In this document: positions 2,053-62,488 of the stretch, piece by piece
Position numbering within the stretch: position 1 is the first letter of the stretch
Layout: each line of letters begins with the position of its first letter
Assembly (NCBI GenBank): GCA_042263625.1
Contig: JBHKFL010000006.1
Span: forward strand, 3,766 to 67,765
Reading direction: 5' to 3'
Source of the DNA: Candidatus Malihini olakiniferum
Lineage (GTDB): Bacteria; Pseudomonadota; Gammaproteobacteria; Enterobacterales; Enterobacteriaceae
DNA: 64,000 nucleotides
The notes under the pieces: generated by a model
Told to the model about the DNA's origin: nothing
Databases searched by the model: none
The model's input: only the letters and a program-made list of their open reading frames with translations
Position numbers and translations under genes: made by a program

Positions 2053-2350
2053 ATGCAGGCGTGCTTCTTCATCTTCATCTAATCAATTTATCGCCAACGC
2101 AGGCATAGCGTGCTACTGCATTGTTAACAAAAATAATGCGTGACTCTCTTTCTACTATACTGCAATAGCATAAATAGAGAAACGCTCTACCTTCTATCTT
2201 CTGGCTATCAAGAACTTCATCTTCCAGAATGCCAGTAGCATCCATAAATTTTTAATCAGTAGCACAAGAACCTTCATAGATCTAGATCTGCCTAAATTAC
2301 TTTTACCCCCCCGAGGCACCTTACTTTGCAGCATAGTGTGCGTACATCAC
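2040..2350 (-). pseudogene. panD: aspartate 1-decarboxylase remnant
   Basis: Fragments MLQSK, YEGSCATD*KFMDATGIL, ERFSIYAIA, RIIFVNNAVARYACVGDKLI and DEEARLHHP, with stops and frameshifts. Confidence 0.85.
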
Positions 2351-2384
2351 TGTCTATTACCTAGATTAATGTCTATCCTGCCTG

Positions 2385-2660
2385 TCAGTCGAAGACCAGC
2401 TCAACATCGATCTACTGGTTATCAATCAAAAGGTTTTTCCTAGACCTGGCAAAGCCGCCATCAATGTCGAGAATATAGAGCTCATCTGGCGTAAACACAG
2501 TTTCACTTAATGACTCTGCGGCGCTAGTTAGTGTTTCTTCCGACTAGTCGCCATTGCTCAGCTTCTTTACTGCTTGATCCATGATGCGTTTAAGCGCTGT
2601 GGCTAAATGAGCCTCTTAGGGCTAAGATAACTGACGAATTAGCGCTAACTGTTGTTAATC
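2385..2660 (-). pseudogene. panC: pantothenate synthetase, C-terminal remnant
   Basis: KRIMDQAVKKLSNGD*...FTPDELYI...LIDNQ* matches the PanC C-terminus. Confidence 0.8.
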
Positions 2661-2769
2661 CTGTTTACCAAAACAGGCTATGTTAGGTTGTACTATGTTG
2701 AACAGCTTGCTGACACCGGACGAGACTTGTGCCTTCTAACATGGAAGAGAGCCCAGAAAATTCGACAAA

Positions 2770-2990
2770 CGATTATTGAAACAGTCGATTAAGATCGACG
2801 ACTTCTAGAAACAGAAGGTCGGAAATCAGTAGGTTTAATCGCTCTGCGCGCTGTATGCAGCGTGCTTGATGCGATTTTACTTTCAGTGACCGTAAGCGAG
2901 GAATCATATCCAGAGAGTCACCAAACATCATAACGCGAATACCATTTTGTAGGTGGAATAGAAGGAGGTAAGGCATAGCGATAAATTCAC
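2770..2990 (-). pseudogene. panB: ketopantoate hydroxymethyltransferase, N-terminal remnant
   Basis: NGIRVMMFGDSLDM resembles QGIKVLLVGDSLGM, followed by LLISDLLF; syntenic position. Confidence 0.75.
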
Positions 2991-12801: not shown

Positions 12802-14235
12802 ATGAAAAGAAAATCATTGGTTCTGAGTGCATTGGCGCTGAGTCTGGTAATGAGCATGTGGCAAGTCGCCGCGGCGACAGAGGCGACAAGATTAACATCC
12901 AGCCAGATGCCAAGTCTGGCTCCGATGCTCGAGAAAGTGATGCCTTCCGCCGTTAGCATCTCTATTGAAGGGCATACCGACATCAAGCGCAGCAATATTC
13001 CGCAGCAGATTCAACCTTTCTTTGGCGAAAATTCACCGTTCTGTCAGGAAGGTTCTCCCTTCCAACACTCCCCGATTTGTCAGGGAGGTGAAGATGAAGG
13101 AGAAGAGAGCGTGCCTGCGAATCGTGAGCATTTTCAGGCACTTGGTTCTGGCGTGGTGATTAACGCAGAGAAAGGCTATGTGGTAACTAATAACCACGTG
13201 GTAGAAAACGCGGATAAGATTCAGGTACGGCTCTACGACGGACGCAGATACGACGCTAAAGTGATTGGCAAAGACACGCGTACCGATATTGCATTAATCC
13301 AACTAATTGATTTTAAAAGACTAACAGCCATTAAGATCGCTGATTCCGATCAGTTATGCGTGGGTGATTATACAGTCGCGATTGGTAATCCGTATGGCTT
13401 AGGCCAGACGGCTACGTCCGGCATTGTTTCCGCGCTGGGGCGCAGCGGACTCAATATCGAAAATTATGAAAACTTTATCCAGACCGATGCAGCAATCAAC
13501 CGAGGCAACTCAGGTGGCGCATTAGTTAACCTCAATGGTGAACTTATCGGTCTGAACACTGCTATCCTTGCACCGGACGGCGGGAATATCGGTATTGGCT
13601 TTGCGATTCCTAGCAATATGGTGAAAAATCTGACAGCGCAACTGCTTGAATATGGCGATGTGAAACGCGGTGAGCTAGGTATTACCGGCACTGAGCTAAA
13701 CTCCGATTTGGCACAGGCGCTGAAAGTAGATGCGCAGCGCGGCGCGTTTGTCAGCCAGGTCAGGGCGAAATCAGCAGCAGATGACGCTGGCATCAAGGCT
13801 GGTGACGTAATTTTGACGCTGAATAATAAACCGATCAGCAGCTTTTCTGCACTACGTGCACAGGTTGGTTCTTTGCCAGTTGGAAGTAAGATCAAGCTAG
13901 GCTTGCTGCGTGAGGGTAAACCATTAACAGTAGAAGTGACCTTACAGCAGGCAAATCAGACGCAGATGGCCTCTGGCAATCTCTATCCTGGGATCAGCGG
14001 AGCATCACTCAGCAACACCGAAATCGAAGGACAGAAAGGTGTGAAGGTGGATGATGTAAAAGTTAGTTCGGCTGCAGCGAAAATTGGTTTGAAGAAGAAT
14101 GACGTGATACTTGCTGTTAATCAGCAACCGGTGCAGAATCTCGGCGAACTGCGTACAATCCTGGACAGCAAGCCTACTGTATTGGCACTGAATGTGCGAC
14201 GTGGAGATATAACACTTTATCTATTAGCACAATAA
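12802..14235 (+). CDS. degP: periplasmic serine endoprotease DegP
   Basis: Signal peptide, TNNHV and GNSGG catalytic motifs, two PDZ domains. Confidence 0.96.
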   Translation: MKRKSLVLSALALSLVMSMWQVAAATEATRLTSSQMPSLAPMLEKVMPSAVSISIEGHTDIKRSNIPQQIQPFFGENSPFCQEGSPFQHSPICQGGEDEGEESVPANREHFQALGSGVVINAEKGYVVTNNHVVENADKIQVRLYDGRRYDAKVIGKDTRTDIALIQLIDFKRLTAIKIADSDQLCVGDYTVAIGNPYGLGQTATSGIVSALGRSGLNIENYENFIQTDAAINRGNSGGALVNLNGELIGLNTAILAPDGGNIGIGFAIPSNMVKNLTAQLLEYGDVKRGELGITGTELNSDLAQALKVDAQRGAFVSQVRAKSAADDAGIKAGDVILTLNNKPISSFSALRAQVGSLPVGSKIKLGLLREGKPLTVEVTLQQANQTQMASGNLYPGISGASLSNTEIEGQKGVKVDDVKVSSAAAKIGLKKNDVILAVNQQPVQNLGELRTILDSKPTVLALNVRRGDITLYLLAQ

Positions 14236-28727: not shown

Positions 28728-29190
28728 TTGAATGGCTAGCAGTAAGCGTTTATCTAAAATTGACTGGATAGTCTGACAATGAAATCTGACAATGAAATCT
28801 GGACTTCTGCTGGATCACTAAAAATGAATGGCTTATGCGCATTTTGGCGAAGGGGGATGCGCATGCTCTTCGTTTTCCGCTCAGAGAGGTATTTGCAACC
28901 GGTCACACCGCTGCTGGTGTGTTTTAGTGGGCTGCAGAAAAATGAAAACGCTGCCTAATGTTAAGCTAGTCTAGGCTATCTAGCCTTACCACTCACTCAC
29001 TGGAAGCATGCTTTATGGTGGCCTCTGCGCACATGAATTGCTCATTCGTGTGCTAGAAGTCAGAGCACAAAACCAACTATTGGATGGCGCTCAAGCCCTA
29101 TTCTGTTAGGAAACCGTTAAAAAGTAGTAATCTTTTTTAGAAATCAGCTAGTTTACGACTTTCTATCCCTCCTCTCCGACGACGGAGGAA
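28728..29190 (+). pseudogene. recO: DNA repair protein RecO remnant
   Basis: G*Q*AF, ILAKG, LQPVTPLL, LYGGL..ELLIRVLE and MALKPY fragments. Confidence 0.9.
28772..28797. repeat. exact tandem duplication, 13 bp x2
   Basis: TCTGACAATGAAA x2 inside recO. Confidence 0.9.
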
Positions 29191-29310
29191 TACTGATCAA
29201 AGCGGAAATCCGAACGGCGATTCTGTGCTAGAAGGTGGCGACTGTAGTAACTAACTAAAAGTGCAGTGTACACTGCTCACCTAACGGTAATTTTAGTGAG
29301 GACTGATGTA

Positions 29311-30042
29311 ATGGCTGAGCTTTTGCTAGGTGTAAATATCGATCACGTGGCGACTCTACGCAATGCACGTGGTACGGCATACCCAGATCCTGTGCAGGCT
29401 GCATTTGTTGCCGAGCAAACCGGTGCAGATCGCATTACGGTTCACCTACGCGAAGATCGCCGTCACATCACCGATCGCGACGTGCGTTTATTACGCCAAA
29501 CGTTGCAGACACACATGAATCTTGAAATAGCCGTAACAGAAGAGATGCTGGAGATAGCCTGTGAACTTCGCGTACACTTCTGCTGCCTGGTGCCTGAAAA
29601 ACGAGAGGAAGTGACGACAGAAGGCGGGCTTGATGTAGCAGGTCAATTACCGCGCATGATATCAGCTGTAGCGCGCTTGCGAGAGGCGGGCATTCTGGTT
29701 TCTCTGTTTATCGATCCGGAACGGGTGCAAATTGATGCCGCGATAGCAGTAGGTGCGCCTTATATTGAAATCCATACTGGTGCTTATGCTGATGCACAGG
29801 ACGATACACTGCGCCAACAAGAGTGCGCTCGTATTCGCGATGCGGCGTTTTATGCTGTTAGTAAAGGGCTTAAGGTAAATGCAGGGCATGGTCTTACGTA
29901 CCATAACGTACATGCTATTGCTGCATTACCTGAAATCCATGAGCTTAATATCGGGCACGCCATTATTGGTCGCGCAGTCATGAGTGGTTTACCTGATGCC
30001 GTAGCGAAAATGAAAGCGTTGATGAGGGAAGCCCGTCGCTAA
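29311..30042 (+). CDS. pdxJ: pyridoxine 5'-phosphate synthase
   Basis: [24 protein letters not shown] and NAGHGL motifs. Confidence 0.97.
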
Positions 30043-30431
30043 TGCTTATTCTGGAGCTAAGTTCGGATATTGTCGAGAGCGCTGGGATTGAGGCGATTAT
30101 CGCCCGCTCAGGCGAGCGTCTAGCGCGCAGAGCAGAGTCTTGTCTGCACAAGAGTGGTTGCACTATCAACGGCACTAGAACAGGCCGCCTGCTGCTTTGC
30201 CAAGCACTTCTGCCGTCAAAGAAGAAACAGTGGAGAACGCGTTAGGTACTGGCATTAGCTAATGATGGGCCTCCGAACGAAGAGTTTGAAGTCTTTAACG
30301 ATCCGCTTAGTAAACCTTGCTTTCGGCTGTGGAAATACACGCAATCGATAGCGGACCGCTTCTGTACAGATAAGATTCACCTAACTATCTCTGATAAACG
30401 ATACTATGCATGTAGCATGGTAATCTTTTAG
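30042..30431 (+). pseudogene. acpS: holo-ACP synthase, frameshifted
   Basis: The N-terminal DIVE..IIARSGERLARR frame stops at 30245; the C-terminal FEVFNDPLSKP..ISDKRYYAC lies in another frame and ends at 30431. Confidence 0.88.
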
Positions 30432-30451
30432 CGGTGAACGAAAACGCTAGA

Positions 30452-30775
<324 letters not shown>

Positions 30776-48288: not shown

Positions 48289-49635
48289 GTGGAAGGCTAT
48301 ACCACTGAGAATGAGCAAGTTGGTGCGTTGCGCCGATTCTTTTCCTGCGACAAATGGGTCGTAGGCGAATCCGCTACATGCATTGCAGGCGTTGTTGCAC
48401 AGGCGTTGTTGCATATGAAATTAAATCACCTGATAAGGGCTAAGAGAAACATCATACCCTTGGGTAAAACACTTATAGTTTTGATGCTTTCTCTGACTTT
48501 TTTGAGCGGATGTTCGTTATTCAGAGGCGAAGAAGATGTAGTGACTATGTCACCGCTTCACAAGGTAGAGAACCAGTTTATACCGATAAAAGTCTGGAGC
48601 AGCTCTGTGGGGAGTGGCCTCGACGGGCACTATTCCAACTTGCGTCCAGCCTGGATAGGCGGAAGCATCTTTGCAGCCGATCGTAAAGGATTAGTAAAAG
48701 CGATGGCTTTGGCGAACGGAAAAGAGCTGTGGAGTGCCGATCTGTCCAAAAAACGTGGACTTCTCTCTTCGCGTGAATCCGCGCTACTTTCCGGCGGCGT
48801 GACGGTCTCTGGCGATCATCTATATGTCGGTAGCGAGCGAGCAGAAGTTTTTAGGCTCAATGCGGCAGACGGTACGATCGAATGGAAAGCCACAGCATCG
48901 GGTGAAGTGTTATCACGCCCTGTAGTGAGTGATGGCGCGGTGCTGGTTCACACCAGCAATGGCATGTTGCAAGCGCTAAACGAAAGTGACGGAGCCATCA
49001 AATGGACAGTAAACCTGGCTATCCCGACGCTTTCGCTGCGCGGTGAATCTGCGCCAGCAACGGCGTTTGGTGCAGCCATAGTAGGCGGAGATAACGGTCG
49101 TGTGAACGCTGTGCTGATTAACCAAGGGCAACTGATTTGGCAACAGCGCATCGCTCAAGCGAGCGGTTCGACCGAAATCGATCATCTGAATGATGTAGAC
49201 ACTACGCCAGTTGTAGTCGGTAAACTAGTGTATGCACTGGGTTATAACGGCAATATGACGGCGCTGGATCTACGATCTGGTCAGATCGTATGGAAACGCG
49301 AACTGGGCAGCGTACAAGATTTCGTGATTAATGGTGATGGCATTTTTGTCGTGGATCAAAATGATCGCGTGGTAGCACTCAGTACTAAAAGTGGCGTTAA
49401 TTTATGGCGGCAAAGCAATCTGCTGCACCGTAATCTTACAGGCCCGGCACTGTATAATGGTGATCTGGTGGTGGGAGATTCTGAAGGTTACCTACATTGG
49501 ATTAATACTACAGATGGTCGTTTCGTTGCACAGTATAAAGTGGATAGTTCCGGCTTTCTAAGCGCCCCGATGTTGGCTAGTGACAAGCTGCTGATTCAGG
49601 CGAAGAACGGTGAAGTCTACGCGTTTACCCGCTAA
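48289..49635 (+). CDS. bamB: BamB lipoprotein fused in-frame to a YfgM remnant
   Basis: YfgM N-terminus (YTTENEQV-ALRRFF) and C-terminus (LL-MKLN-L) precede lipobox LSGC and PQQ-like repeats. Confidence 0.92.
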   Translation: MEGYTTENEQVGALRRFFSCDKWVVGESATCIAGVVAQALLHMKLNHLIRAKRNIIPLGKTLIVLMLSLTFLSGCSLFRGEEDVVTMSPLHKVENQFIPIKVWSSSVGSGLDGHYSNLRPAWIGGSIFAADRKGLVKAMALANGKELWSADLSKKRGLLSSRESALLSGGVTVSGDHLYVGSERAEVFRLNAADGTIEWKATASGEVLSRPVVSDGAVLVHTSNGMLQALNESDGAIKWTVNLAIPTLSLRGESAPATAFGAAIVGGDNGRVNAVLINQGQLIWQQRIAQASGSTEIDHLNDVDTTPVVVGKLVYALGYNGNMTALDLRSGQIVWKRELGSVQDFVINGDGIFVVDQNDRVVALSTKSGVNLWRQSNLLHRNLTGPALYNGDLVVGDSEGYLHWINTTDGRFVAQYKVDSSGFLSAPMLASDKLLIQAKNGEVYAFTR

Positions 49636-61765: not shown

Positions 61766-62488
61766 TCAGAAGAGAGATGAAATCAATGCGGTATCATCAG
61801 ATGTGACTTTTATCATCCACCCTTGTTCATGCCAGGCACCAAGTACAGCACGTTGTACTTCGCCGCTTTCTGTAATAAAAGTATGAATAGCTGGTCGATG
61901 GGTATGACCGTGAATCAACATTTTTGCTGCATGCGTCTGAAAAAATACCTGCACAGCTTGCGGGTTGACATCCATGATCTGCTGAGATTTTTGTCGGTTT
62001 ACCTGCTGGCTTGCATCGCGCATTCTGTCTGCAATCTTAAGACGAAAACTTAACGGTAAATGTAGGAATATCCATTGGATAACCGGCTTGTGTACGCATC
62101 GGCGATATTTCTGGTAGGCCTCATCATCACTGCACAGGGTATCGCCGTGCATGATCAGTATCCGGCGACCATAGAGTTCCACTAGCTGTTCTGTGGGCAG
62201 CAGTGTCATGCCTGCCCGTTTGGCAAAACGTTTGCCTAGCAGAAAGTCACGGTTTCCGTGAATGAAGTAGCAGGGAACGCCAGACTGTTGCAACTGATGC
62301 AGTGCCTCGGCGACAATCGCATGCAGCGATTGAGGATCGTCATCGCCAATCCAGGCATCGAATAGATCGCCCAATATGTAGAGCGCCTCAGCCTGTTGTG
62401 CATCACGCTTAAGAAAACGCAGAAAAATGGCGGTAATCGACGGTTCCTGTGCGTTAAGATGCAGGTCGGAAATAAACAGTGTCACCAT
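61766..62488 (-). CDS. lpxH: UDP-2,3-diacylglucosamine diphosphatase
   Basis: SDLH, LGDLFD, GNRD, HGD and HGHTH metallophosphoesterase motifs. Confidence 0.96.

Follow-up and report, generated by a model that had tools for sequence, protein, structure and literature searches.

How does a bacterium whose holo-ACP synthase gene has decayed keep the pathways that depend on holo-ACP? The question is raised by a 64,000-nucleotide stretch of 'Candidatus Malihini olakiniferum' (the window), in which a preliminary description had found acpS inactivated beside persisting lipid A and outer-membrane genes, and had offered three ways out: another phosphopantetheinyl transferase (PPTase) substitutes, the host or a co-symbiont supplies the lipids or the activity, or the LPS pathway is in delayed decay. 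The evidence assembled below makes it very likely that holo-ACP is made by the sole PPTase remaining in this genome, a group II, F/KES, PcpS-like enzyme of 245 aa, in place of the dead AcpS. In neither of the published descriptions of the symbiont clade (PMC11425488, PMC12360927) does the main text refer to acpS or to PPTases.

Genomes and searches

The genome containing the window (G000) is the metagenome-assembled draft of a psyllid symbiont (1,072,111 bp, or 1.07 Mb, in 8 contigs, with ~44.5% GC and 95% completeness). Malihini shares its host with one or two further symbionts, on which it depends metabolically (PMC11425488, PMC12360927), and its genome from P. gracilis has been described as 1.1 Mb long in 8 contigs, with a GC content of 44.4% and with the B6 and CoA pathways intact (PMC11425488). 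The two descriptions conflict over size, the values for the symbionts of P. gracilis and P. hina being reversed between them: 1.1 and 1.3 Mb, respectively, in one (PMC11425488) versus 1.35 and 1.07 Mbp in the other (PMC12360927).

The genus set comprised 13 genomes of Symbiopectobacterium/'Ca. Malihini', G000 included, among them that of 'Ca. Malihini olakiniferum' of Pariaconus crassiorcalix (G012) and those of two bed-bug symbionts (G002 and G010). A wider sample of 30 relatives in the order (Enterobacterales sensu GTDB) was scored for AcpS and PPTases. The acpS region was aligned to acpS of ten related genomes, of which G009 holds the closest intact homologue, and genes were inventoried with E. 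coli K-12 genes as tblastn queries against the whole G000 genome. A genuine AcpS was expected to appear as one unbroken ORF of ~125-140 codons with a score exceeding the cut-off of its model (TIGR00516, 59.8 bits), and the models for the PPTase superfamily (PF01648) and for carrier proteins (PF00550) were both run genome-wide on G000.

acpS is a long-dead pseudogene

Gene order in the window is that of E. coli, rnc-era-(recO remnant)-pdxJ-acpS with yfhL convergent, and the acpS remnant and its neighbours are as follows (window coordinates).

29311-30042, plus strand: pdxJ, intact upstream neighbour, used as a control gene under selection (omega 0.14 versus G009)
30042-30476, plus strand: acpS pseudogene (group I PPTase, holo-ACP synthase), assigned by alignment, HMM and dN/dS
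30452-30712, minus strand: yfhL ferredoxin, intact convergent neighbour, supporting the E. coli synteny

The stop codon of pdxJ and the ATG of acpS overlap (TAATG), and the frame opened by this ATG at 30042 closes after 67 codons. Relative to G009, the gene has acquired six insertions (5 bp at 30135-30139, 2 bp at 30182-30183, 1 bp at 30211, 3 bp at 30225-30227, 4 bp at 30279-30282 and 1 bp at 30429) and its ancestral frame is interrupted by four stops (CAG to TAG at 30176, CAA to TAA at 30260, GGA to TGA at 30263 and a change to TAG at 30448). No uninterrupted ORF above the AcpS cut-off is present in the window copy; TIGR00516 instead picks up a pair of fragments that lie in different frames and fall below threshold, at 32.9 and 18 bits. 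Translation along the ancestral frame gives ELS for GLG in the N-terminal motif and KEAVEN for KEAAAK. Nucleotide divergence from G009 is ~21% across the gene, and dN against the same genome is 0.193 with an omega of 0.50, versus 0.041 and 0.14 for the adjoining pdxJ. Homology extends to ~30476, beyond the end at 30431 given in the preliminary description, because AcpS is extended at its C-terminus in this genus. The earlier reading of acpS as frameshifted and heavily substituted is thus borne out: with ten lesions in 417 bp and a dN of 0.19, it is a long-dead pseudogene in a conserved pdxJ-acpS-yfhL position, and so many lesions mean that its state is not an assembly error.

The recO gene between era and pdxJ (window 28750-29270) is one more dead gene of the rnc-era-pdxJ operon. 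Unlike the intact rnc, era and pdxJ, it is down to ~520 bp, to which tblastn with E. coli RecO gave no match.

The demand for holo-ACP is real

The outer-membrane genes of the window and the remnants of its pantothenate genes are as follows (window coordinates).

2081-2844, minus strand: panD and panC remnants (2081-2278 and 2628-2844), short fragments with stops
12913-14223, plus strand: degP, intact, full-length TIGR02037 match (515 bits) without stops
48469-49629, plus strand: bamB, intact, full-length TIGR03300 match (426 bits) without stops
61766-62488, minus strand: lpxH, intact, 61% identity to E. coli LpxH over residues 1-236, without stops

Both bamB and degP score above their NCBIfam cut-offs, and lpxH can be aligned with E. 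coli LpxH from end to end at 61781-62488; these three genes are as intact as had been described. Beyond the window, acpP is intact (87% identity to E. coli ACP by tblastn), and by the same search the genes for fatty acid synthesis (fabH, fabD, fabG, fabA, fabZ and fabI), for acetyl-CoA carboxylase (accA, accB, accC and accD), and for CoA synthesis (coaA, coaBC, coaD and coaE) are intact, full length and without stops, as are lipA, lipB, birA, lpxA, lpxC, lpxD and lpxB. The inventory also counts fabB as intact, although it is split between two contigs (C6:79907-80401 and C7:3-854, encoding residues 1-166 and 121-404); as these halves overlap and lie at contig ends, C6 and C7 must be adjacent and overlapping. 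In the whole genome, fabF gave no tblastn match. A plsX pseudogene with stops lies directly upstream of the intact fabH-fabD-fabG-acpP, and the remnants of plsX and panF are found at G000:C7:42339-43092 and C7:596663-596895, respectively. Taken as a set, the intact acpP, fab, acc, lpx, lip and coa genes show that the demand for holo-ACP is real.

AcpP is the only PP-binding carrier protein that PF00550 detects anywhere in G000. A second candidate, a weak match on contig C5, was rejected, being ribosomal protein L7/L12. The DSLD motif and helix II of AcpP are identical in 13/13 genomes of the genus and the four changes in the G000 protein are all peripheral, so co-adaptation of AcpP to a new transferase was rejected.

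The loss of panBCD, which had been noted earlier, is likewise upheld, as panD and panC survive only as fragments and panB gave no tblastn match in the whole genome. As panF, too, is no more than a short remnant behind accBC, some precursor at the level of pantothenate has to be taken up by a non-PanF route.

Lipid A synthesis is probably truncated and not uniformly decaying

The genes required to make and export the lipid A precursor remain. In addition to those already listed, among them lpxA and lpxD for the early steps that depend on ACP, lpxH, lpxK and msbA are intact, full length and without stops by tblastn, lptA, lptB and lptC are intact by the same search, and lptF and lptG are intact by Pfam. 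In contrast, the following genes of the Kdo branch and of late acylation are pseudogenes.

G000:C4:12549-13807: waaA
G000:C7:125664-125771: kdsA
G000:C7:177285-178241: lpxM
G000:C7:207576-208320: kdsB
G000:C7:580345-581940: kdsD and kdsC

Similarly, lpxL gave no tblastn match in the whole genome. Delayed decay, as first proposed for the LPS pathway, therefore describes only part of it: kdsA, kdsB, kdsC, kdsD, waaA and lpxM are dead, but the six steps to lipid IVA and MsbA/Lpt export have been kept. To judge from this gene content, the lipid A (Raetz) pathway probably ends at Kdo-free lipid IVA that is still exported, and lipid IVA is the predicted outer-leaflet lipid since the organism has lost the Kdo branch and the late acyltransferases but kept the early steps and export.

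MsbA (G000:C7:209549-211294) carries a D498A substitution beside Walker B (LLRDCPIL to LLRACPIL), found only in G000 among the 13 genus genomes and E. coli. This change may be an adaptation to lipid IVA flipping, which we regard as a lead and not a finding; changes at MsbA residue 498 are what we take to be suppressors of Kdo-less E. coli.

A single PcpS-like transferase remains

The PPTase profile search found a second intact transferase, which removes the premise on which the paradox had been built and supports the first of the three alternatives originally offered.

G000:C7:533419-534153, minus strand: Sfp-type PPTase, the sole PF01648 match in the genome, outside the window

Exactly one gene in G000 is recognised by PF01648, and tblastn with E. 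coli AcpS, EntD and AcpT against the genome returned nothing beyond the acpS remnant and this gene (hereafter the C7 PPTase); an AcpT-type PPTase was rejected as E. coli AcpT gave no match. The ORF encodes 245 aa, a length equal in 7 congeners, and has the two-domain architecture of group II enzymes (~230-250 aa, 4PPT_N plus ACPS), with both domains over their cut-offs (PF17837, 81.8 bits; PF01648, 46.6 bits). The motifs KRRAEFLAGR, GSLSH, GVDVE and FSAKESLFKA are invariant in an 11-sequence alignment and include the metal, CoA and catalytic motifs of group II (G-x-D-x-E, (F/W)(S/C/T)xKE(S/A)xxK and the His of SxSH); the last three align with their counterparts in Pseudomonas aeruginosa PcpS, and the FSAKES motif places the protein in the F/KES subfamily. 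It scores below the NCBIfam cut-offs of the EntD, PptT and AcpT models and lies outside the EntD equivalog family (NF007604, 106.4 bits versus a cut-off of 169). PcpS (7BCZ) is its best solved relative by sequence (E 2.4e-26). The AlphaFold model (pLDDT 86.9, pTM 0.86) has the pseudo-twofold alpha/beta fold of group II and was matched by Foldseek to PcpS 7BCZ over its full length (TM 0.85-0.86, 240 columns), with TM values of 0.64-0.69 to PptT and PptAb. The C7 PPTase is thus an intact group II, Sfp-type, PcpS-like enzyme, and the only PPTase of a genome in which AcpP-dependent pathways are present.

The gene is also under purifying selection (omega ~0.1). Its dN/dS is 0.098 versus G009, 0.079 versus G005 and 0.19 versus G012, values like those of the housekeeping gene pdxJ, and it carries no lesion in 738 bp where ~18 would be expected at the lesion density of acpS (P ~2e-8, a rough Poisson estimate). 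In the free-living G005, the PPTase starts 35 bp after a nupC-like transporter gene and is followed by large genes; in G000 the upstream nupC-like gene and the downstream genes have decayed, leaving the PPTase as an intact island. The Shine-Dalgarno stretch before its ATG matches that of free-living relatives. As its former upstream neighbour is now dead and a consensus scan found no sigma-70-like promoter upstream, expression of the PPTase in the symbiont is presumed.

The two transferases are lost alternately across the genus

The state of both genes was compared across the 13 genomes of the genus set.

G004, G005, G006, G008, G009 and G011 (3.9-5.7 Mb): acpS intact, Sfp-type PPTase intact
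G000 (1.07 Mb): acpS dead, Sfp-type PPTase intact
G012 (2.5 Mb): acpS dead, Sfp-type PPTase intact
G002 (2.0 Mb): acpS intact, Sfp-type PPTase riddled with stops
G010 (2.6 Mb): acpS intact, Sfp-type PPTase riddled with stops
G001 and G007 (4.5 and 4.0 Mb): acpS intact, no trace of the Sfp-type PPTase found
G003 (4.6 Mb): acpS intact, Sfp-type PPTase in two frames near codon 28, a probable frameshift

None of the 13 genomes lacks both genes. This distribution suggests that AcpS and the PcpS-like PPTase were redundant in a free-living Symbiopectobacterium ancestor and that erosion resolved the pair in opposite directions, with the psyllid Malihini keeping the Sfp-type enzyme and the bed-bug symbionts keeping AcpS, a history that we consider likely. 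The acpS gene of G012 has lost 21 bp in one deletion, gained a 7-bp poly-C stretch by insertion and acquired three small indels. No indel clearly common to G000 and G012 was found in the alignment, so the visible lesions are independent, and the use of shared lesions to date a single loss was rejected. As both genomes belong to the monophyletic Malihini clade, the two deaths may nonetheless go back to one earlier functional loss.

Life without AcpS is common in the order, as no match to AcpS was obtained in 5/30 sampled relatives (G016, G019, G020, G026 and G029), whose PPTases are exclusively Sfp-type and of the W/KEA subfamily. For example, G016 (L078), a member of the same family with a free-living-sized genome (4.6 Mb, 100% complete), encodes a single W/KEA Sfp-type PPTase and has no AcpS match by TIGR00516 or PF01648.

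Comparison with known transferases

The closest parallel is provided by PcpS, an Sfp-type enzyme on which both fatty-acid and siderophore synthesis rely in P. aeruginosa. According to the paper that deposited its structure (7BCZ), PcpS is the only PPTase of that organism, is essential and activates both the FAS ACP and NRPSs (PMC8433221); it has also been shown to convert AcpP1 fully to its holo form (PMC5686131). Like PcpS, the C7 PPTase is a two-domain group II enzyme of ~245 aa in the F/KES subfamily and the sole PPTase of its genome, and for this last reason each of the two must serve AcpP. However, identity is only ~30% across the structural alignment, and the activity of the C7 PPTase is inferred. 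The settings also differ: AcpS is absent from the whole Pseudomonas lineage and PcpS serves NRPSs as well, whereas in G000 the loss of AcpS is recent enough for the pseudogene to be still visible and no NRPS or other carrier is left.

The C7 PPTase shares its Pfam architecture and F/KES motif with E. coli EntD (36% identity over 157 residues), but falls well short of the EntD model (106 bits versus 169) and has no linkage to enterobactin genes, standing alone beside the nupC-like transporter in the free-living G005. EntD acts poorly on apo-ACP, and activity on AcpP is therefore not automatic for the F/KES subfamily. In E. coli, EntD is not known to replace AcpS.

Similarly, G000 resembles AcpS-less relatives (e.g. 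Haemophilus-type genomes) in relying on an Sfp-type PPTase, although their W/KEA (AcpT-like) enzymes share just 21-29% identity with the C7 PPTase in partial alignments. Bacillus subtilis Sfp is a broad-specificity group II PPTase that can take over primary metabolism from AcpS, a substitution obtained in the laboratory and not a natural replacement. The likeness to the C7 PPTase is one of general principle only, as the two proteins are distant (Foldseek TM ~0.5-0.56, 16-17% identity).

A proposed route to holo-ACP and its alternatives

In the route that we propose, CoA would be made by the intact coaA, coaBC, coaD and coaE products from imported pantothenate or pantetheine, and the PcpS-like PPTase would then transfer 4'-phosphopantetheine from CoA onto Ser36 of an unchanged AcpP. 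The resulting holo-AcpP would supply the intact FAS II as well as LpxA/LpxD, PlsB and LipB. In this scheme the transfer step alone goes beyond what the sequence itself shows. An ancestor would have carried both transferases, redundant for AcpP, of which decay would have removed one or the other depending on the symbiont lineage. From the sequence evidence we infer that the C7 PPTase modifies AcpP in vivo. Purifying selection and the genus-wide alternate loss support the FAS ACP as its substrate, though only indirectly, and given the conserved DSLD motif and helix II the enzyme evidently needs no altered substrate. The 8-contig draft, at 95% completeness, also leaves room for a further PPTase gene in an assembly gap, which is conceivable.

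A recent, unreplaced death of acpS, after which acpP, fab and lpx have merely not yet mutated, would fit a genome that is actively decaying, with many pseudogenes, and in which the kds, waaA, lpxM, plsX and pan genes are already dead. This explanation is very improbable, since acpS has been dead long enough to gather ten disabling lesions and a dN of 0.19, a period over which >25 ACP-dependent or ACP-supplying genes have remained stop-free and the C7 PPTase has kept an omega of ~0.1; moreover, the same situation is found in G012, where the lesions are different. Equally improbable is provision from outside, in which the psyllid host or a co-symbiont (Carsonella or Makana) would supply holo-ACP formation or the lipids themselves. 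Metabolic dependence on one or two co-symbionts (PMC11425488, PMC12360927) and the need to import a pantothenate-level precursor, panBCD and panF being dead, speak for such provision, but it is made unnecessary by the organism's own intact PPTase, which is under selection and has AcpP as its only possible substrate; lipid import would leave a complete FAS II without purpose, and the account based on the symbiont's own PPTase requires no precedent for protein import.

There is even less reason to believe that the Sfp-type PPTase is kept for another substrate while AcpP is modified by an unrecognised enzyme. In free-living relatives the PPTase presumably serves carrier proteins of secondary metabolism, and its score below the EntD equivalog cut-off gives no indication of a native partner, but neither another PP-binding carrier domain nor another member of the PPTase superfamily is detectable in G000. 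Finally, that reads would restore the acpS frame of this metagenome-assembled draft has practically no chance of being true in view of six separate insertions, four stops by point mutation, ~21% divergence from G009, the absence of acpS indels in long homopolymers and a clean neighbouring pdxJ.

Implications for symbiont genome reduction

The apparent paradox of a dead essential gene beside live dependent pathways is thus removed by the second PPTase. Essentiality defined in E. coli can mislead the reconstruction of symbiont pathways, and an enzyme of the same function elsewhere in the genome should be sought first. If the proposed redundancy is real, the ancestral enterobacterial F/KES PPTase would already have been competent on unmodified AcpP, and the F/KES PPTase of Symbiopectobacterium is predicted to be of broad specificity. 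The alternate retention of AcpS and the PcpS-like enzyme in sister symbiont lineages speaks to contingency in reductive evolution, and would constitute a natural experiment in which the 'essential' gene that survives genome reduction is itself contingent.
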